Shown here: positions 260-64,000 of the stretch, piece after piece
Numbering within the stretch: the stretch's first letter is position 1
How the letters are laid out: every line of letters starts with the position of its first letter
DNA from: Squalus acanthias
Lineage: Eukaryota
Assembly (NCBI GenBank): GCA_030390025.1
Contig: CM059431.1
Coordinates: 132,930,001 to 132,994,000, forward strand
Length of the DNA: 64,000 nt
Direction: 5' to 3'
The notes under the pieces: generated by a model
Databases searched by the model: none
What the model saw: the letters and a program-made list of their open reading frames with translations, nothing else
What the model was told of the DNA's origin: nothing
Program-made: the position numbers and the translations under genes

Positions 260-1010
260 CATGCACCTCTTGCTTTCCTGCCCTCCCCTCACCACAACCC
301 TACCCTTGTACCTTCCTCATTTTAGACACCCAAGATATCCAGCCTGCCCAGCCAGTGGTTGACTAAGAAGAGGGAGAGGAGAACGAAGAAGAAGAAGAAG
401 AAACACCATCACTCGGCTTCACACCCCCAGTCACCAATTCCTCGAGGTCGCCCTGCAAGGCCATCTGCAGTGCCCTCCCACTGAAAGTCAGCAGCCTTCC
501 ACCAGCCATGCTGCAGCCACTGGGGTAGACAAAGGCAGAAGCAAGGCAGTCACTAAGGGAATGCACAAGGGTGATGAGTTGATTTCTTGATGTCCTATTG
601 AATGCATATATGGATAAAGTTGGATTGCAAAGTTTGCTTAGTGGTGCTTTTTATTTCAGCATTGTGGCCAAGAAGATGCTGTGATGGTCAGTAACAGAGG
701 TGTGGGACAAATGTTGTAAGGGGAATTGGGGTTGTAGTCACTGGTACCACAGGCGGATGATTTGATCCCAGATATCCTGGCCAGAAAGGGGCTGTCTGGG
801 TTGCCTCCTTCCTTCCGCTTCCTCCTCTTCTGCTTCCTCCTCTTCTGCTTCTTCCTCTTCCCTCTGCAAGCAGCTTGTCCCCTCTGCTGCCTCTGCTTCA
901 GCTCCATGTGATGTTGCAGCCTAAGGGGGACTGCAACTCGAGCCCCCAGGACACAGTGTAACAGTGGGGCCCCCTTGTGATATGAACTTGATGTGGTGTC
1001 ATTTAAATGT
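260..1010. pseudogene. Internally deleted Harbinger remnant: Myb-partner exon-3 pieces (+) and transposase N/C-terminal pieces (-)
   Basis: 290-350 matches the intron/exon-3 junction at 58604-58670 (reverse complement). Minus strand GARVAVPLRLQHH resembles the transposase start MGAVVCISLDLQHD at 55827; there is also a poly-Glu tract. Confidence 0.6.
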
Positions 1011-2519
1011 GCCCCCCACATGCACATCTCCAATCTTGTGGAAAGCAGACCATGAAAACACTTCGTGAGATAAGCTAGTTATGCAGTTTTATTTATAGAC
1101 AACAAGTGAACATTCAGAGGAACAGTTATGATCGGATTTACTTAGTTCAATCAGTGCAACATATCCTTGTGTAATAATGCAAAACAATGAACACGCTATG
1201 CTTCCCTACATCAGTTTGCTGTCTTGCATGACTCTCTTGCATCCTAATCTTCTGATTCTGGGTGAATACACGTGCTGTTTTAAAAAATACTTAAATGTAA
1301 CTCTTTTTCCAAATACTTTCTGTGGATAATTTGTTTTCAAAAGTCCTGAAACATGACAGCAAGGAAGTGCAACAAAGAACAAAGAACAAAAAAGATGTAA
1401 AAAAACACAACATAGCATAGATGCATAATTAAATGCTGGGTGTAATAGGGTGAAAGAGTAAAAGAAATGTAGAATAATGTAACAATGGGAATTTCTGGAT
1501 GTGCTGAAGGCTGTAATGTGATCTATTGTTTGTATTTTTTCTAGTGTGAGGTATCATCTTTATGAGCTGTGAAAATATCAACAGTAAAATGTTACAGAAT
1601 AAAATGTTACGCAGATTTCTCTAGTTTACCCAGGGCTCTGCACAAGGTGCGTGTTTGACGGTTCTGCAACATTTCACAAATCTTTTAAATGCTGAAAATG
1701 AGATATATGTCTAAGGTATTGAAAAAAGAGTCAGCGCTGTACCACATTTGTCAGGGTCAAATCTCAGATGATTAATCTCTTTTCTAATATCTGTATGAGA
1801 GATAAATGGGTGCCATATTTATGAGAAATTGTCCCTAGCTTCAAGAAACAACACATTAAGCTTTCTTTTTGTTAAAAGAGGCAAAAATACTGTTGTCAAA
1901 GGCAGTATCTTTAATATGTTTATGCTGGTAAAAAGATTAACTACCTTAACAATAATTTACATATCCCTAACTGCTTGATCTTCTACCCCCATGTTTTGAC
2001 TTTAGCTTCCTTCTTATACCACAATAAATTTCCCACCAACTTTTATAGGACAAAGATTTGTATTCCACCTCCTCACTCTTACAACTAGTTCAAACTAGTC
2101 GCTATGTTAGCAATATTAGCCTTATGTTTAAGATCCTGCTGTATTAGTTACAACCCATTGTGAGTTGCTAGTGTCTTCTGAAAATGTGGCCCCTGGCTGG
2201 ATAGGAATGCTTACTTTGTATTAACTGTCCAGCATGCCCAACAAATACAAAGACTTACCCAACGGCTGTATCTTACTCCTTCAGAATGTTCCCATTCCAG
2301 AAGCCAGGAATATAAATTAAGTACAGTATGTGGCAAGAAAACATAGAAGCTATTGTTTTCATAGGCCTTAGGAAATAATTACAAGTGGAAATAAATATTG
2401 CTGTTTTAAAAAATAAAATGTTCTTTTCTAATTTTCTTCCCATTTCTCTCCTGATTATTGTTGGGGGACGGTTCCATAAACACCATCTCAAATGACCATT
2501 TTTCATGTCTTATCTTTTA

Positions 2520-2770
2520 CAGAGAGTGTTAGCCGCCTATTGAGCGTGGCAGCATCACAGCTAAGCTCAATGATGTCCTTACCTGATGTCCACACACATG
2601 TACATTTGAACAGGGGTCACTGGATAGCAATTAGAAGCATTTAGAAGCTGATTAGCCCAGGGATATTGAAGATAATTGTAGTGTCCTCTCTTCTGCCCTA
2701 GTAGCTAACTCAACACAAACTAAAGATTAAACCTGGGATCTTCCAGGTCTGTATGGATCAGTATCACATC
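2520..2770 (-). mobile_element. Old SINE-like repeat (same family as 22925-23330)
   Basis: Reverse complement GAAGATCCCAGGTTTAATC...TGTGTTGAGTTAGCT resembles AACTTCCAAGTTCAATCTCTGGTCTGTGCTGAGTCGGTT at ~22980. Confidence 0.4.
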
Positions 2771-2865
2771 ATCTTGTTTTGTTGGGGTGCCTGGATTGCT
2801 TTTCTTGTTGGAATATGATACTTTCATGCATGCTTGGTATTACATACAGGAAGAGGTGATGTGTA

Positions 2866-3628
2866 GGGGGTGATTTTCCCAATGGGGGCGCGTTGGAGGC
2901 GGGACTGCTGCTTGTCGGGTTTCAGTCCCGCCTCCATCGACATCTGGCCAACCCACGCTATTTTGCCTTGATTGAACTTGTTAAGCCCGCCCTGTGGGCT
3001 TAGCAGGCCAATTAAGGGAAAGCTGGTGACAGAGAATGTCAACGTATGACGTTTCATCTGTCAAACACTGACATTCTCTGTTGTTTGGTGAGTTCTTGTA
3101 CTCAAGGCTCACCAAACCTATTTCCAGAGCAGAAAGCAGATGGCTGTTGCATCGGAGAATGCAGCAGCCATTCTGTCATCTCTGCCGTGGAGATGCCGGA
3201 GCCTTCGAATCCCCAATGATTGAAGCCTGCAGGAAGAAACAAATGAAGTAAACTTTTTCGAACACTTTTCACTCACCTCACATACTTACCTCTCCACACT
3301 TGCACCCATCACTCACCTCCACAGCACACTTTTGGACCCCTCTCACCCCCGCAGACCCACTGCTCGCCTCGCCGACGTCGGGAAGCCCGCACCTCTGTTG
3401 GAAAAATGGGGATAATCCTCTTAACTGCCTGTCAACTACCTGTTAACAGGCAGTTAAGTGGCTGTAATCCCCTTCCCGCCTCCAGGAGATGGGACCTGGT
3501 GCGGGTCGGGTACCCGCCTCCTGGGAAGATGGCACGGAGGCGGGATGGGTACCCGCCCCCAGATTCTGCCATTTTCCCGGCAGTCCCGCCTCCAAACCCG
3601 CCTCCCCAGGGCTGGCAAAATCGCCCCC
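2866..3628. mobile_element. Non-autonomous PIF/Harbinger element (MITE)
   Basis: Imperfect ~45-bp TIRs (GGGGGTGATTTT...TGGAGGCGGGACTGC / GCAGTCCCGCCTCCA...AAAATCGCCCCC); 3-bp TSD GTA at 2863-2865 and 3629-3631. Confidence 0.85.
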
Positions 3629-31026: not shown

Positions 31027-31551
31027 TCCGTTAGTATATATCTCGGTTGAGGAATAGAGGTTGCAAGCGCTCAGTCAAAGAGGCCAATGGATATTCCAAG
31101 GAGGTCACACTGTAGATGGATCTCAGGTTGAACACTCACAAGATCAGTTAGCCAAAACCTCAAAGCACTAAGTTGTGGCATCTGAAACTCAGCCATGTTG
31201 TAGGACCGCTTTTAAGCTGCAGTAGCAGCTGTCAACAATTCAGGTCCTTGCTAAACCCGGCACATTGCAGCTGGCGTGTTTGTCGGACGATGGGCAACAC
31301 GCAGAAAATGCTCCAAAATCAGAATAGGCAATTAAAATAAGATTATCCTGGCAGTTAACAAGCTGTTAACTGCCTTAAGTGCCTCTCCCGCTGTTTGGTG
31401 TCAGGTCTCATCGGGACTCGCAGACCCAACACTTGGTAAAGTAGCGTGGAGGCGGGATGATGGCAGGTTCGCATCACGCCGTCAATCATTTAGCTTTTTA
31501 CTCCCGACCCACCTCCAAACCCGCCCTCTGAGCACCGGCAAATTCGTGGCC

Positions 31552-33285
31552 TTTGTGTCTGCCTTCACGGAAGAAGACGCAAAAACCTTCCCGGAAATAG
31601 TGGAGAACCAAGGCTGTAGCGAGAATGAGGAACTGAAAGAAATTACTATTAGTAAAAAAATAGTACTGGAGAAATTAATGGGACTGAAAGTCGATAAATC
31701 CCTGGGGCCTGATGGCCTACATCCTAGGCTTTAAAAGAGTTGGCTATAGAAATAGTGGCTGCATTGGTTGTCAATTACCAAAATTCCATAGATTCTAGAA
31801 TGGTTCCCGCGGATTGGAAGGTAGCAAATGTAACCCCACTATTTAAGAAAGGAGGGAGAGAGAAAACGAGGAACTACAGAGCAGTTAGCCTGACATCAGT
31901 AGTAGGGAAAATGTTAGAATCTATTATTAAGGACGTGGTAACAGGGCACTTAGAAAATAATAATAGAATTGGGCAGAGTCAACACGGATTTATGAAAGGG
32001 AAATCATGTTTGATGAATCTGTTACAGTTTTTTGAGGTTGTAACTAGCAGAATAGATAAGGGGGATCCAGTGGATGTGGTGTATTTGGATTTTCAGAAGG
32101 CATTCGGTAAGGTGCCACACAAGAGGTTATTAAACAAAATTAGGGCTCATGGGATTGAGTGTAATATACTAGCATGGATTGAGGATTGGTTAACGGACAG
32201 AAAACAGAGAGTAGGAATAAACGGGTCATTTTCTGGTTGGCAGGCTGTAACTAGTGGGGTACCGCAAGTATCATTGCTTGGGCCTCAGCTATTCACAATC
32301 TACATCAATGATTTGGATGAGGGGACCAAATGTAATATATCCAAGTTTGCTGATGATACAAAGCTAGGTGGGAATGTAAGTTGTGAGGAGGATGCAAAGA
32401 GGTTTCAAGGGGATATAGACAGCCTAAGTGAGTGGGCAAGAACATGGCAAATGGAATATAATGTGGAGAAATGTGAAGTTATCCACATTGGTAGAAAAAA
32501 TAGAAAAGCAGAGTATTTTTTAAATGGTGAGAGATTGGGAAATGTTGGTGTTCAGAGGGACCTGGGTGTCCTTGTACAAGAATCACTGAAAGTTAACATG
32601 CAGGTACAGTAAGCAATTAGGAAAGCAAATGGTACGTTGGCCTTTATTACAAGAGGATTTGAGTATACGAGTAAAGACGCCTTACTGCAATTATATGGGG
32701 CCCTTCTGAGACCACACCTGGATTGTTGTGTACAGTTTTGGTCTCCTTACCTAAGGAAGGATATACTTGCCATAGAGGGAGTGCATTGAAGGTTCACCAG
32801 ACTCATTCCTGGGATGGGGGGATTGTCCAATGAGGACAGATTGAGTAGACTAGGCCTATATTCTCTAGAGTTTAGAAGAATGAGAGGTGATCTCATTGAA
32901 ACATACAAAATTCTTACAGGGCTTGACAGGGTCAATGCAGGGAGCATGTTTCCCCTGGCTGGGGAGTCTAGAACCAGGGGTCACAATCTCAGAATAATGG
33001 GTCGGCAATTTAGGACTAAGCTGAGGAGAAATTTCTTCACTCAGAGGGTGGTGAATCTTTGGAATTCTCTTCCCCAGAGGACTGTGGAGGCTCAGTCGTT
33101 GAGTATATTCAAGACAGAGATCGATAGATTTTTGGATATTTAGGAAATCAAGGGATATGGGGATAGTGCGGGAAAGTGGAGTTGAGGTAGAAGATCAGCC
33201 ATGATCTTATTGAATGGTGGAGCAGGCTCGAGGGGCCAAATGGCCTACTCCTGCTCCTATTTCTTATGTTCTTATGTACTTATGT
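31552..33285 (+). mobile_element. CR1 LINE, 3' part (RT domain and 3' UTR), continuation of 24611-26281
   Basis: [27 protein letters not shown] tail; several stops. Confidence 0.95.
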
Positions 33286-33413: not shown

Positions 33414-36400
33414 TTTTTTTTTATTAGTTCCTGGGATGTGGGCGTCGCTGGCTAGGCCAGCATTTATTACCCATCCCTAATTGCCCTTGAGAAGGTGGTG
33501 GTGAGCCGCTTCTTGAACTGCTGCAGTCCGTGTGGTGAAGGTACTCCCACTGTGATGTTAAGGAGAGAGTTCCAGGATTTTGACCCAGCGACGATGAAGG
33601 ATCGGCAATATATTTCCAAGTCAGGATGGTGTGTAACTTGGAGGGGAACTTGGAGGTAATGATGTTCCCATGCGCCTGCTGCCCTTGTCCTTCTAGGTGG
33701 TAGATGTCGCGGGTTTGGGAGGTGCTGCTGAAGAAGCCTTAGCGAGTTGCTGCAGTGCATCTTGTAGACACTGCAGCCACGGTACGCCGGTGGTGGAGGG
33801 CATGAATATTTAAGGTTGTGGATGGGGTGCTAATCAAGCGGGCTGCTTTATCCTGGATGGTGTCGAGCTTCTGGAGTGTTGTTGGAGCTGCACTCATCCA
33901 GGCAAGTGAAGAGTATTCCATCACACTCCTGACTTGTGCCTTGTAGATAGTGGAAATGCTTTGGGTAGTCAGCAGGTGAGATACTCAACGCAGAATACCT
34001 AGCCTCTGACCTGCTCTTGTAGCCACAGTATTTATATGGCTGGTCCAGTTAAGTTTCTGGTCAATGGTGACCCCCAGATGTTGATGGTGGGGGATTCGGC
34101 GATGGTAATGCCGTTGAATGTCATGGGGAGGTGGCTAGACACTCTCTTGTTGTAGATAGTCATTGCCTGGCAGTCATCAGCGAACATCCCCACTTCTAAC
34201 CTTATGATAGAGGGAAGGTCATTGATGAAGCAGCTGAAGCTGGTTGGGCCTAGGACACTGCCCTGAGGAACTCCGGCAGCGATGTCCTGGGGCTGTGATG
34301 GTTGATCTCCAACAACCACAACCATCTTCCTTTGGGCTAGGTATGACTCCAGTCAGTGGACAGTTTTCCCCGTGAATCCCATTGACTTCAGTTTTACTAG
34401 GGCTCCTTGATGCCACACTCAGTCAAATGCTGCCTTGATGTCAAGGACAGTCACTCTCACCTCACCTCTGGAATTCAGCTCTTTTGTCCATGTTTGGACC
34501 AAGCCTGTAATGTGGTCTAGATCCGAGTGGTCCCGGCGGAACCGAAACTGGGCATTGGTGAGCAGGTTATTAGTGAGTAAGTGTCGCTTGATAGCACTGT
34601 CAACGACACCTTCCATCACTTTGCTGATGATTGAGAGTAGACTGATGGGGTGGTAAGTGGCCGGATTGGATTTGTCCTGCTTTTTGTGGACAGGACATAC
34701 CTGGACAGTTTTCCACATTTTTGGATATATGCCAGTGTTGTAGCTGTACTGGAACAGCTTGGCTAGAGGTGCAGCTAGTTCTGGAGCGCAAGTCTGCAGC
34801 ACAACAGCCAGGATGCTGTCGGGGCCCATAGCCTTTGATGTATCCAGTGCGCTCAGCCATTTCTTGATATCACGTGGAGTGAATCGAATTGGCTGAAGAC
34901 TGGCTTCTGTGATGGTGGGGACCTCAGGAGGAGTTCGATATGGATTTGGCACTTTTGGCTGAAGATGGTTGCAAACGCTTCAGCCTTGTCTTTTGCATTC
35001 ACGTGCTGGGCTCCACCATCACTGAGGGTGGGGATATTCATGGAGCCTCCTCCTCCCGTTAGTTGTTTAATGGTCCATCACCATTCACAACTGGATGTGG
35101 CAGAACTGCAGAGCTTTGATCTGATCCGTTGATTGTGGGATCGCTTAGCTCTCTCTATAGCATGCTGCTTCCGCTGTTTAGCATGCATTTAGTCCTGTGT
35201 TGCAGCTTCCCCAGGTTGGTACCTCATTTTTAGGTACGTGTGTTGCTGCTCCTGGCATGCTCTTCTGCACTCCTTATTGAACCAGGGTTGGTCCCCTGGC
35301 TTGATGGTAATGGTAGAGTGAGGGATATGCTGGACCATGAGGTTACAGATTGCGGTGAAATACAATTCTGTTGCTGCTGCTGGTGGCCCACAGCGCCTCA
35401 TGGATTCCCAGTTTTGAGCTGCTAGATCTGTTCTGAATCTATCCCATTTAGCACTGTGGTAGTGCCACACAACACGATGGAGGGTGTTCTCAGTGTGAAG
35501 ACGGGACTTCGTCTCCACAATGACTGTGCGGTGGTCACTGCTATCAATGTTGTCATTTACAAATGCATCTGCGACAGGTAGATTGGTGAGGACGAGGTCA
35601 AGTAGGTTTTTCCCCTCGTGTTGGTTCTCTCACCACCTGTCACAGGCCCACATGGCAGCTATGTCCTTCAGGACTCGGCCAGCTCAGTCAGTAGTGGTGC
35701 TACCGAGCCACTCTTTGTGATGGACATTGAAGTCCCCCACCCAGAGTACATTCTGTGCCCTTACTGCTATCATTACTTCTTCCAAGTAGTGTTCAACATG
35801 GAGGAGTACTGATTCATCAGCTGAGGGAGGGCAGTAGGTGGTAATCAGCAGGAGCTTTCCTTGCCCATGCTTGACCTGAAGCCATGAGACTTCATGGGGT
35901 CCGGAGTCAATGTTGAGGACTCCCAGGGCCACTCCTTCCCGATTGTATACCACTGTGCTGCCACCTCTAGTTGGTCTGTCCTGCCGGTGGGACAGGACAT
36001 ACCCAGGGATGGTGATGGAGGAGTATGGGACATTGGCTGAAAGGTATGATTCTGTGAGTATGACTATGTCAGGCTGCTGCTTGACTAGTCTGCGGGACAA
36101 CTGTCCCAATTCTGGCACAAGTCCCCAGATGTTCGTGAGGAGGCCTTTGCAGGGTCGACTGGGCTGGGTGTGCCATTGTCGTACCCGTAGCCGGTGCCGA
36201 GGTCGATGCCGGGTGGTCCGTCCGGCTTTGTTCTTCTTACTGTTTTTCCTGCTTGCTAGGTAATTTCAGAGGGCAGTTAAGAGTCAACCACATTGCTGTG
36301 GGTCTGGAGTCACATATAGGCCAGACCAGGTAAGGACAGCAGATTTCTTTCCCGAAAGGACATTAGTGAACCAGATGGGATTTTACGACAATCCGATATT

Positions 36401-36635
36401 TCTTCCTCATGTGCTCCCACAACCTATGGAAATAGGAGACAGTGCTTGCTCAGTGAGCCATCTCATTCCATTTCATGGTTTCATGGTCACCATTACTGAT
36501 ACCAGTTTTTTACTCCAGATTTATTTAATTAACTGAATTTAAGTTCCCCAGCTGTCGTGGTGGGATTTGAACTCATGTCCCATGATCATTATTCTAGGTC
36601 TCTGGATTACTAGTCCAGTAACATAACCACTATGG
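33414..36635 (-). mobile_element. CR1/L2-group LINE family 2 (APE-RT, degraded) with a tRNA-like 5' head and A-rich 3' end
   Basis: PDIVILTESYL and WVGDFN (APE); [23 protein letters not shown] (RT); 3' GCTGGCCTAGCCAGC hairpin then AATAAAAAAAA; head at ~36550-36635. Confidence 0.9.
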
Positions 36636-36929: not shown

Positions 36930-37570
36930 TGCAGACAGAGGGAAGTGTAGGGAGAACTCCTCCCTGCGATAAATGGGCCCTAGACATTTTGCTGGAGGAG
37001 GTGAAACAAAGGTCGATAGCCATTATTTGGGTCGACGGGCACCTTTTTTTGATCAGAAATGTGTAGTAGGCATGGAATGAGATGGTTCACTGAGCAAGCA
37101 CTGTCTCCATTTCCATAGGTTGTGGGAGCACGAGGAAGACATTTTCAGAGCTTAAGAAAATTCCAAAAATTAATGGCCAGAGGGTGCCGACTCAAAATAT
37201 ATGCCCAAACTATGCAAGTCAGAAACACTTAAATCCCAACCTGTTGCTGCATCACCAGGTAGCATGGGAAGCTGTAATACAACCAATCTGTTCTATACTA
37301 CATGCACTCCAATGCCCATATGACTGCAGGTTACACTTTATGCCTGGCACTGAAATATGCAGATAATGTCTCACAAATTTATCTAGTAGTTCCCCCAATG
37401 CACATTGTCACTAGAAATGACTTGCATGCTGCATTATCCTGCATTCACACATGGTGAGATGAAAGCTAGACACTGAGGTGTTATTCTTTGGTTTTCTATG
37501 TTCTAACATTTATGTTTCATATCTGTATGCAGGAGAATATGGTCCATAATCACTACAAAAGAGTTAGTAC
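36930..37570 (+). pseudogene. Old Harbinger Myb-like gene remnant (exon 1, intron, start of exon 2)
   Basis: GCAG|GAGAATATGGTCCATAATC equals the exon-2 start; the intron matches the reverse complements of 44290-44343 and 47490-47525. Confidence 0.55.
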
Positions 37571-59390: not shown

Positions 59391-59715
59391 AGTGTTGTTC
59401 CTGCTCAGAATATCTTCCCCAGCCACTTCCAGCAACTGCTGCAACCAGAATGCACCTCCCTTTTAAAAGGTGCAGGCTGCCTTTATGTAGTGCAGGCTAG
59501 CTTTAAGTGGTGCTAACCTTGCATGGACTTGGGCCCCCTGCTGAGATATGCAGCCACTCAACAGCACATCAATGCTGGGCTGCACGCTACTATCATTTAA
59601 ATTAGAAGGCAGCCCAAAGTTTGCGTGCTGCCTCCATCGGAAGGAACAGACCATTAACCCGCGCCCATTTTTGGGCCTTGTCCAATTTCTAGGCCTACAT
59701 GCGGTAAGGAAATAG

Positions 59716-59796
59716 TAGCATAGTGGATGATGTTACTGGACTAGTAATCCAGAGGCCTGGACTAATGATCCAGAAACGTGAGTTCAAATCCCACCA
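59716..59796 (+). promoter_or_regulatory. tRNA-derived Pol III-type head (A-box 59716-59726, B-box 59782-59790)
   Basis: TAGCATAGTGG...CTGGA-CTAGTAA-TCCAG...GTTCAAATCCCACCA. Confidence 0.7.
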
Positions 59797-61462
59797 CGGC
59801 AGCTGGGGAATTTAAATGCAGTTAATTAAATAAATCTGTAATAAAAAACTAGTATCAGTAATGGTGACCATGAAACTATCGGATTGTTGTAAAACCCTAT
59901 CTGGTTCACTAATGTCCATTACCTGGTCTGGCCTATATGTGACTCCAGACCCACAGCAATGTGGTTAACTCTTAACTTCCCTCTGAATTGGCCGAGCAAG
60001 CCGCAAGCCACTCAGTTGTACGCAACCGCTATGAAAAACCATAATAAGGATAAAACCGGACGGACCACCCGGCACTGGCTATGGACATGACAATGGCACA
60101 CCCAGCCCAGTCGACCCTGCAAAGTGCTCCTCACAAACATATCTGGGGACATGTGCCAAAATTGGGAGAGCTGTCACACAGTCTAGTCAAGCAACAGCCT
60201 GACTGACATAGTCATACTCACAGAATGATATCTTTCAGCCAATGTCCCAAACTCCTTGATCACCATCCCTGGGTTTTTCCTATCCCACCAGGCAGGACTA
60301 GTCCCACCAGAGAGGTGGTGGCACAGCGGTATACAGTCGAGAGGGAGTGGCCCTGGGAGTCCTCAACATTGGCTCCGGACATGAAGTCTCATGGCTTCAG
60401 GTCAAACATGGGCAAGGAATCCTCCTGCTGATTACCACCTACCGCCCTCCCTCAGCTGATGAATCAGTACTCCTCCATGTTGAACACCACTTGGAAGAAG
60501 CACTGAGAGTAGCAACGGCACAGAATGTACTCTGGGTGGGGGACTTCAATGTCCATCACCAAGAGTGGCTCGGTAGCAGCACTACTGGCTGAGCCTTGAA
60601 GGACATAGCTGCCAGTCTGGGCCTGTGACACGAAAACGAGGGAAAAACCTACTGGACCTTGTCCTCACCAATCTACCTGTCGTAGATGTATCTGTCCATG
60701 ACAACATTGGTAGCAGTGACCACCACACAGTGGAGATAAAGTCCCACCTTCACACTGAGGACACCCTCCATCATGTTGTGTGACACTACCACCGTGCTAA
60801 ATGGGATAGATACAGAACAGATCTAGCAGCTCAAAATTGGGCATCCATGAGGTGCTGTGGGCCATCAGCAGCAGCAGAATTGTATTCCACCACAATCTGT
60901 AACCTCATGGCCCGGCATATCCTTCACTCTAACATTACCATTAAGCCAGGGGACCAACCCTGGTTCAATAAGGAGTGTAGAAGAGCATGCCAGGAGCAGC
61001 ACCAGGTGTACCTAAAAATGAGGTGCCAACCTGGGGAAGCTGCAACACAGGACTATGTGCCTGCTAAAAAGCGGAAGCAGCATGCTATAGACAGGGCTAA
61101 GAGATCCCACAATCAATGGATCAGATCAAAGCTCTGCAGTCCTGCCACATCCAGTTGTGAATGGTGGTGGACCATTAAACAACTAACGGGAGGAGGAGGC
61201 TCCATGAATATCCCCATCCTCAATGATGGAGGAGCCCAGCACGTGAGCGCAAAAGACAAGGCTGAAGCGTTTGCAACCATCTTCAGCCAGAAGTGCTGAG
61301 TGGATGATCCATATCGGCCTCCTCCTGAGGTCCCCACCATCACAGAAGCCAGTCTTCAGCCAATTCAATTCCCTCCATGTGATATCAAGAAACAGCTGAG
61401 CGCACTGGATACAGCAAAGGCTATGGGCCCCGACAACATCCCGGCTGTCGTGCTGAAGACTT

Positions 61463-63457
61463 AGAACATAAGAAATAGGAGCAGGAGTAGGCCATTTGGC
61501 CCTTCGAGCCTGCTCCGCCATTCAATGAGATCATGGCTGATCTTCTGCCTCAATTCCATTCACCGACCTTATCGCCATATCCCTTGATGCCCTTACTAGT
61601 CAAAAATCTATCGACTTCTGTTTTGAATATACCCAATGACTGAGCCTCCACAGCCCTCTGGGGTAGAGAATTCCAAAGATTCACCACCCTCTGTGTGAAG
61701 AAATTTCTTCTTATCTCAGTCCTGAATGGCCTACTCTTTATCTTGAGGCTGTGGCCCCTGGTTCTAGGCTCCCCAGCCAAGGGAAACATTCTCCCAGCAT
61801 CCACCCTATCAAGCCCTGTAATAATTTTGTATGCTTCAATGAGATCCCCTCTCATTCTTCTGAATTCAAGAGAATACAGGCCTAGTTTACTCAATCTCTT
61901 CTCATACGACAGTCCTGCCATCCCAGGAATCAATCTCGTGAACCTTCGTTGCACTCCCTCTATGGCAAGTATATCCTTCCTTAGGTAAGGAGACCAAAAT
62001 TGTACACAGTACTCCAGGTGTGGTCTCACCAAGGCCCTATATAATTGGAGTAAGACTTCTTTACTCCTGTACTCAAATTCTCTTGTAATGAAGGCCAGCA
62101 TACCATTTGCCTTCCTAATAGCGTGCTGCACCTGCACATTCACTTTCAGTGACTCATGTACAAGGACACCCAGGTTCCTTTGAACATCTGCATTCCCCAA
62201 TCTTTCACCATTTAGGAAATACTCTGCCTTTCTGTTTTTTCTACCAAAGTGGATAACTTCACATTTATCCACATTATAATCCATCTGCCATGCTCTCGCT
62301 CACTCACTGAGCCTATCGAGATCCCCTTGAAGCCTCTTCACATCCTCTTTGCAACTGACACTGCCACCTAGCTTTGTGTCATCAGCAAATTTGGAAATGT
62401 TACTTTTAGTCCCCTCATCCAAATCATTGATATAGATTGTGAATAGCTGGGGCCCAAGCACCGATCCTTGCGGTACCCCACTAGTCATAGCCTGCCATCC
62501 TGAAAAAGACCCATTTATCCCTACTCTTTGTTTTCTGTCTGTTAACCAATTCTCAATCCATGCTAGTATATTACCCCCAATTTCATGTGCCCTAATTTTG
62601 TTCACCAACCTCTTGTGTGAGACCTTATTGAAGGCCTTCTGAAAATCCAAATACACCACATCTACTGGTTCCCCTTTTTCTACTCCACTAGTTACATCTT
62701 CAAAGAACTCCAATAGGTTTGTCAAACAGGACTTCCCTTTCATAAATCCATGTTGACTCTGCCCAATCTTATTATTAGTTTCTAAGTGCCCAGTTATTGC
62801 ATCCTTTATAATTGATTCCAGCATTTTCCCAACTACTGATGTGAGGCTAACAGGTCTGTAGTTCCCCATTTTCTCTCTCCCTCCTTTCTTAAATAGCGGG
62901 GTTACATTTGCTATCCTCCAATCTGCAGGAATCGTTCCAGAATCTATAGAATTTTGGAAGATGACAACCAATGCATCCATTATCCCAATGGCCATCTCTT
63001 TCAAAACCCTAGGATGTAGGTCATCCGGTCCTTGAGATTTATCGACTTTTAGTCCCATTAATTTTGCTAGTACTGTTTTTTTACTATTAATAATTTCTTT
63101 AAGTTCCTCATTCTCACCACACCCTTGGTTTTCTCGTATTTCTGGGAGGTTTTTTGTGTCTTCCTCCGTGAAGACTGAAACAAAGTATTTATTTAATTTC
63201 TCAGCTATTTCCTCATTCCCCATTATAAATTCTCCCGTCTCTGACTGTAAAGGACCTACATTTACCTTTGCCAGTCTTTTCCTTTTCACATACCTATAGA
63301 AGCTTTTACAATCCGTTTTTATATTTTTCGCTAGTTTGTGCTCATATTCCATTTTCCCTTTCTTTATCAATTTCTTGGTCCCCCTTTGCTGATTTCTAAA
63401 AAATCCCAATCCTCAGGCTGACCGCTTTTTCTGGCAACTTTATAAGCTTCCTCTTTT
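61463..63457 (-). mobile_element. 5'-truncated CR1 LINE; ORF2 (63409-61550) broken by a single in-frame stop at 62300-62302
   Basis: Complete RT motifs ([23 protein letters not shown]); GACTT duplicated at both junctions. Confidence 0.95.
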
Positions 63458-64000
63458 GACTTGTGCTCCAGAACTAGCTGCACATCTAGCCAAGCCGTTC
63501 CAGTACAGTTACAACACTGGCATCTATCCGACAATGTGGAAAACTTCCCAGGTATGTCCTGTCCACAAAAAGGACAAATCTAATCCGGCCAATTACCGCC
63601 CCATCAGTCTACTCTCAATCATCAGCAAAGTGATGGAAGGTGTCATTGATAGTGCTATCAAACGGCACTCAACAATAACCTACTCATTGATGCCCAGTTT
63701 GGGTTCCACCAGGACCACTCAGCTCCAGACCTCATTACAGCCTTGATCCAAACATGGACAAAAGAGCTGAATTCCAGAGGTGAGGTGAGAGTGACTGCCT
63801 CTGACATCAAGGCAGCATTTGACCGAGTGTGGCATCAAGGAGTCCTAGTAAAACTGAAGTCAATGGGAATCAGGGGGAAAACTTTCCACTGGCTGGAGTC
63901 ATACCTAGCACAAAGGAAGATGGTTGTGGTGGTTGGAGGTCAATCATCACAGCCCCCAGGTTATTGCTGCAGGAGTACCTCAGGGCAGTGTCCTAGGACA

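Follow-up and report, generated by a model that had tools for sequence, protein, structure and literature searches.

The working rule for retrotransposons assigns LINEs to Pol II and SINEs to Pol III, with Pol III RNAs taken to be short and untranslated. The stretch of DNA analysed here (the window: 64,000 nt of Squalus acanthias contig CM059431.1) raises the question of whether a coding LINE may depart from this rule. It contains two copies, A and B, of one LINE family with a single ORF (APE-RT), and the initial annotation had described in both of them a shared tRNA-like head with A- and B-boxes, followed about 400 bp later by the first APE motif. Both observations were confirmed: the boxes could be located (Table 1) and the head matches the Rfam tRNA model, and the first endonuclease codons of copy B, at 60121, lie 405 nt past its A-box.

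Table 1. Features of the two Zenon copies, in positions of the window.
Feature	Position	Strand	Remarks
Copy B, tRNA-derived head	59708..59795	+	A-box, anticodon-like arm, extra arm, B-box; without acceptor stem
Copy B, A-box	59716-59726	+	
Copy B, anticodon-like arm	59736-59752	+	
Copy B, B-box	59780-59790	+	
Copy B, remainder of 5' UTR	59796..60030	+	exactly the part retained in the short derivative
Copy B, candidate non-AUG start	60031..60033	+	ATG in copy B; putative role
Copy B, ORF part 1	60031..61462	+	N-terminal linker (basic), APE endonuclease (from 60121) and beginning of RT
Antisense CR1 inserted in copy B, unrelated	61463-63457	-	
Copy B, ORF part 2 (RT)	63458..64000	+	continued outside the window for ~950 nt, as far as the poly(A) tail
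Copy A	33414-36634	-	head, UTR, APE, RT, 3' UTR, A-tail
Copy A, B-box	36564-36574	-	
Copy A, start of endonuclease (APE)	36148	-	domain confirmed by Pfam
Copy A, stop codon	near 33477	-	

Copy A is 93% identical to the column majority of the family alignment described below. Its head is that of copy B minus the first ~11 nt, and it has a 73-nt insertion in the UTR and a 124-nt deletion in the RT. Stops and frameshifts disrupt the ORF in both window copies. The insertion in the UTR of copy A (36402-36474) is a 93% identical inverted copy of the flank at 37072-37142, that is, a locally templated insertion whose source lies ~450-500 nt outside the 5' end of the element. The CR1 that interrupts copy B is 85% identical to another CR1 copy at 31551-33272, which adjoins the tail of copy A; we take both of these to be HER1-type.

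On sequence comparison, the family is the elasmobranch Zenon, which has already been published (PMC13343379). The comparison with the published Zenon consensus sequences was made by eye and covers the first 400 nt of each; over this length SquAca_Zenon-1 (3314 nt) matches the 5' end of our family nearly letter for letter. Because of this match, the family, its length and its missing ORF1 must be regarded as already known, and we see no structural difference from the elasmobranch Zenon elements (SquAca_Zenon-1, CarCar, RhiTyp, ScyCan, HypSab) in the part of PMC13343379 covered. There, Zenon is described in five elasmobranchs and all Zenon are given as having a poly(A) tail and no ORF1; the lack of ORF1 is ordinary for Zenon. 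Our family has a single APE-RT ORF without ORF1, and a poly(A) tail, not a tandem-repeat tail. Its RT was placed in a FastTree phylogeny, for which 189 of 204 sequences were kept and loci under 33% identity were dropped. It fell within a clade (support 0.975) together with lepidopteran, sponge and brittle-star proteins and apart from the host CR1; this tree is without labelled Zenon, and the Zenon label rests on the by-eye match with SquAca_Zenon-1. The closest proteins are 38-45% identical, most of them 900-1050 aa long and encoded on contigs of about 3-4 kb. An assignment to canonical CR1 (HER1-type) was rejected, the family being separate from host CR1 in the RT tree and having no ORF1.

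The family had initially been proposed as under-described. This does not hold for the family itself or for its missing ORF1, both published under the name Zenon, but it does hold for the tRNA head, which goes unmentioned in the covered part of PMC13343379. The words tRNA, polymerase and promoter have no occurrence in the text covered, tRNA is absent from the supplement over the first 400 letters of each sequence, and neither tRNA nor Pol III occurs in the covered part of the preprint. To the same extent, the published account is without a promoter and without the T-run avoidance, the missing AUG and the short derivative reported below.

The head of copy B matches the Rfam tRNA model RF00005 at 59715-59795 with 23.5 bits, below the 29-bit cut-off, and the same head in a copy of the short form (L184) reaches 29.6 bits, above it. 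We describe the head as being without acceptor stem because the Rfam match spans model positions 7-64 only. No tRNA was called by ARAGORN on the whole window. The A-box is exact in 11/20 long copies and 17/26 short copies, and the B-box in 13/20 and 18/26, respectively. Aligned to the Rfam model, the anticodon-like loop has AGT (Thr); the head also has a long extra arm that we take to resemble that of tRNA-Leu, and the host tRNAs considered were limited to Lys, Cys, Tyr, Gly and two without assignment. Tandem tRNA-Lys(TTT) genes were observed ~1.77 kb apart on contigs C29, C2208 and C1484. In a fold test on five inputs, the mis-placed locus L235 being left out, single heads folded no better than their shuffles (z -0.14 and 0.45), and neither did the start region. 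Membership of the MetaSINEs, for which we looked for the 66-bp Meta-domain directly 3' of the tRNA head, was rejected: after the head, no likeness to the BivaMeta-SINE1/BivaMD-SINE1 alignments was visible by eye in the part of PMC4824008 covered. Of the metagenome loci tested, ARAGORN found no tRNA in 40/80, and Rfam none in 15.

Sharks and rays split ~270-300 million years ago. The published consensus sequences of white shark, whale shark, catshark, dogfish and stingray, inspected by eye over the part covered, all open with the head (PMC13343379). The A-box fits in 5/5 of these species and the B-box in 4/5, that of stingray being one base short, and the extra arm differs in sequence among the five consensus sets. 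No such head was seen by eye in the first 400 nt of the hagfish and coelacanth Zenon, the coelacanth 5' end being poorly resolved. As for the relatives within the Zenon clade, TTTT runs are present in 7/7 of those with DNA and an in-frame ATG in 3/3 of those with an N-terminus, and no tRNA match was found in either of the two with more than 1 kb upstream (2/2). The head appears to be old and specific to shark/ray Zenon.

The unit to which the head belongs was delimited on 40 stretches taken around head-plus-endonuclease matches, 30 of which reach the 3' end; 22 of them (2.9-3.8 kb) were aligned. In these 22 copies, column support rises from 0.14-0.50 in the 15 columns that precede base 1 to 0.64-1.0 past it, and the 5' end of the family is a sharp boundary with a terminal GGG. 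The column majority is 3312 nt long and contains a single 972-codon frame from base 330; Pfam found APE and RVT_1 on natural copies. The element is thus laid out as the head, a ~340-nt UTR, the 972-codon APE-RT frame and an A-tail, with a total length of 3.31 kb in the 22-copy alignment instead of the roughly 3.5 kb first estimated.

For an unbiased sample, the genome was searched with P0001, a distant protein of 42% identity, and the best 30 loci were taken. Of these 30 ORF-selected loci, six begin at base 1; truncation at positions 13-574 accounts for the other 24, whose flanks are unrelated. The head is reached in 11/30, and sequence upstream of base 1 is common to none (0/30), in agreement with the initial proposal that the element has no ORF1. 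Among head-selected loci, 22/29 continue into the ORF at a fixed distance and 7/29 jump to the tail. The sharp 5' end and the collinearity in ORF-selected copies support the claim that head and ORF make up one element. Linkage inside a single target-site duplication, which had been suggested for this purpose, proved not to be applicable as a test: the 32 complete copies have no consistent duplication, three showing a 5-bp match (vs 0.7 in shuffled pairs) and none a longer one. Variants common to at least 5 of 52 copies have an N/S of 0.94 and no stops, vs an N/S of 2.97 for singletons, and we therefore consider that the ORF is under purifying selection in the source elements. With 3.31 kb and a selected ORF, the full-length element does not correspond to a SINE (short, non-coding, non-autonomous).

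Several individual loci deserve mention. Four of the 24 5' truncations (L218, L221, L233 and L240) lie within the A-rich linker next to the candidate start, at 343-352, and may reflect microhomology or a processed RNA end. The locus pairs L034/L049 and L157/L158 have identical flanks and correspond to duplicated or haplotype copies of one insertion. At L069, a Zenon copy is interrupted (410-3160) by an insert with two long open frames, of 369 and of 547 aa, which we take to resemble a Penelope-type element.

The main frame raises the problem of its translation start, since its first in-frame Met is codon 286 and none precedes the endonuclease. A TAA precedes the frame in 37/44 copies, and the codon three codons past it is ACG in 25/38, ATG in 7/38 and ACA in 6/38, a mix with the appearance of CpG decay from ACG. 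We retain ACG as the lead candidate start. The distance from the candidate-start codon to the next fixed motif falls into length classes (57 copies) of 0 (10 copies), +3 (24) and -6 (4), seven further copies at -59 being probably mis-anchored; an AAT repeat, without selection, could explain the multiples of three. A conserved out-of-frame ATG, with an A at -3, lies 16 nt downstream of the ACG and begins an overlapping frame of 48 codons. Among 44 typed copies, 28 have this ATG and the other 16 have ATA, and the ATG group is the younger one (2.6% vs 3.4% non-CpG divergence). This ATG is found in 5/5 published elasmobranch consensus sets, in the part of PMC13343379 covered, and the stingray consensus is without ACG. 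Between dogfish and stingray, by eye over the same part, the differences in the overlap amount to 5 silent and 5 replacing in the 48-codon frame and to 2 silent and 7 replacing in the main frame, a weak hint in favour of a frameshift route. The unpolarised differences tied to the ATA group comprise 11 silent and 8 replacing ones; these numbers suggest that the ATA lineage coded without the out-of-frame ATG. A likeness between the basic N-terminus and protein P0004 was dropped because it depended on a 6-nt stretch absent in other sharks.

The initial annotation had proposed to look for a depletion of TTTT terminators on the sense strand. The column majority contains no TTTT at all, and the depletion is apparent in comparison with synonymous-codon shuffles for runs of 3+ T (5 vs 11.1 expected, P=0.006) and for windows with 4 T in 5 nt (1 vs 9.4 expected, P=0.003), TTTT alone being not significant (0 vs 1.84 expected, P=0.12). 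The matching A control is flat (62 vs 64.2), so that the depletion is T-specific. For TTTT, the observed/expected ratio is 0.10 over the 52 copies, which descend from few source elements and are therefore non-independent; in this genome, 55 stretches from other LINEs give 1.26. Two relatives without known head are T-poor (1 vs 3.6 in L243 and 0 vs 2.4 in L126).

At the 3' end, AATAAA is intact, ~45 nt upstream, in 96/101 ends. The six internal T3 runs are unchanged in 210/213 readings, and the sole variable T-run is the one just before the poly(A) tail: among 65 ORF-bearing ends, it has one T in 22, two in 15, three in 10 and 5-10 in 8, with 0 or an unparsed run in 10. T+ SINEs show a variable 3' T-run via truncation of the terminator and later lengthening, and T-runs beside short A-tails can lengthen by mutation alone, without Pol III (PMC8466645, in the part covered).

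In a short form of ~460 nt, the complete 5' UTR, ending near base 346, is joined to the last 100-140 nt; it was recovered at 29/30 loci, with many different junctions, and TTTT is present in 6/28 short forms. The head of the short form shares diagnostic bases with the older long copies. In a tree of heads (20 long and 26 short copies) the two forms are intermixed with weak support, in no fixed order of origin. Joins of UTR to tail occur at a different point in three more distant organisms (40-93 contigs each). The short form fits repeated internal deletion from a headed LINE, its presumed direction of origin. This UTR-plus-tail derivative seems to behave like a SINE, and would have been one from birth because it inherited the head.

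The reading that we favour, and to which we would give an even chance, is that the Zenon LINE is transcribed by Pol III and that this RNA also serves as mRNA, with a non-AUG start. The internal A- and B-boxes would recruit Pol III, with initiation at the terminal GGG, and T-runs would have been lost from the strand so that Pol III can cross 3.3 kb. Pol III would stop in the 3' T-tract and the RNA would be polyadenylated as in T+ SINEs. The uncapped RNA would then be translated from ACG or a nearby codon, and the protein would act by target-primed reverse transcription to copy its own RNA, besides mobilising the 460-nt derivative. In a stronger version, which we put forward tentatively, shark/ray Zenon would be an autonomous coding retrotransposon wholly on Pol III since the shark-ray split, giving rise to SINEs by simple internal deletion. 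The steps which this version implies, from a captured tRNA promoter to a 3.3-kb uncapped, polyadenylated and terminator-purged RNA and to its AUG-free translation, are possible and proposed with the same caution. We count against Pol III transcription the P value of TTTT alone, the T-poor headless relatives, the out-of-frame ATG and the presence of TTTT in short forms, as well as the size of SINE-like RNAs, 100-1300 nt, which has been attributed to weak Pol III processivity (PMC10886601, in the part covered).

Alternatively, the head could be a relic left by an ancient switch of template to a tRNA or SINE. In that case, the LINE would be transcribed by Pol II into a capped RNA, either from a UTR promoter or by host read-through, and its T-poverty would have another cause. 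Pol II is indeed the stated rule for LINEs in the covered parts of PMC10886601 and PMC5786205, and the nearly constant AATAAA, the non-significant absence of TTTT taken alone and the conserved ATG with A at -3, although out of frame, all go in this direction. Such a relic would however hardly be expected to keep A- and B-boxes at the exact 5' end in both sharks and ray while the intervening sequence changed; moreover, the depletion hits T and not A, and 5/7 headless relatives are without such depletion. We thus regard this explanation as unlikely, if still to be reckoned with. Labour could also be split, Pol III RNA being the genomic template and the protein coming from capped Pol II read-through of source copies. 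The head, the T-avoidance and the 3' T-run would then be accounted for without translating an uncapped RNA, but purifying selection on the ORF along source lineages fits cis action better and the missing in-frame AUG is left unexplained, which makes this scenario quite improbable in our opinion.

Two further explanations bear on the nature of the head itself. By analogy with the HDV-like ribozymes of R2 and RTE, it might serve for processing, RNase P or a similar enzyme cleaving there to free the 5' end from a host transcript. The resulting precise 5' end and uncapped RNA would fit the sharp boundary and the missing AUG; the restricted Rfam match without acceptor stem and the folding of single heads no better than shuffles speak against it, and it offers no reason for T-run avoidance, so that we hold it for very unlikely. 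The initial annotation had also envisaged that the head is an independent SINE, lying by chance beside 5'-truncated LINEs. The abundance of the short form with the same head would be in keeping with this idea, but it is contradicted by the fixed head-ORF distance in most head-selected loci, by the ORF-selected copies, which either reach the head or are truncated internally, and by the same head-ORF join in the consensus sets of five species (PMC13343379, in the part covered); we give it practically no credence.

Some of these features have precedents, here compared on the parts of the cited papers covered. The lepidopteran Zenon and its derivative Persaeus (PMC6740152) similarly combine a 3.3-kb single-ORF LINE with an internally deleted UTR-and-tail derivative and a poly(A) end, but in Persaeus both tRNA homology and a Pol III promoter are lacking, whereas the shark LINE and its derivative carry the former and, by prediction, the latter. 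The tRNA-LINE architecture is not unique, since RTE-1_DAn and elements related to it are said, in one sentence, to be LINEs containing tRNA-like sequence (PMC5786205). This nearest precedent belongs to a different clade, and the position of the head, its promoter function and the T-run content are not described in the passages covered. The T+ SINEs B2, Dip and Ves (PMC8466645) share with Zenon a tRNA head, AATAAA and a variable T-run before the A-tail; they are short, non-coding and non-autonomous, and polyadenylation of Pol III RNA, shown for them, is only presumed for Zenon. Bov-tA, AfroSINE and SINE2-1_ACar (PMC5786205, PMC4494074) likewise associate a tRNA head with LINE 5' and 3' ends, but their head is proposed to have been added after internal deletion, whereas the shark coding LINE is already headed. 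An autonomous LINE transcribed by Pol III was not described in the literature searched, which includes the covered parts of PMC4824008, PMC5499810, PMC11481361, PMC10294476, PMC3747384, PMC4494074, 10.1101/443036 and PMC10572872, with Repbase, Dfam and most subscription papers outside its scope. A coding LINE that combines a conserved, predicted 5' tRNA promoter with T-run avoidance, a putative terminator at its 3' end and the lack of an in-frame AUG thus appears to be undescribed.

If Pol III transcription is correct, the existence in nature of a coding element of 3.3 kb under a conserved tRNA promoter would contradict the LINE/SINE polymerase rule, and the element would allow one to test readily whether protein can be made from uncapped Pol III RNA. 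It would also reveal a direct route to the birth of SINEs, by deletion from an already headed LINE, and would bear on the use of compact single-ORF retrotransposons as insertion tools. If transcription is by Pol II and the head a relic, the result reduces to an annotation note on a published family.

Among more distant sequences, the viral contigs gave one distant match only. Many animal LINE contigs (L242-L321) turned out to be binned into GTDB bacterial or archaeal assemblies, likely as host contamination. In a distant LINE (L088), a DIHPNPGP motif is located ahead of the endonuclease (upstream of 1958); we take this motif to be of the 2A-like peptide class.
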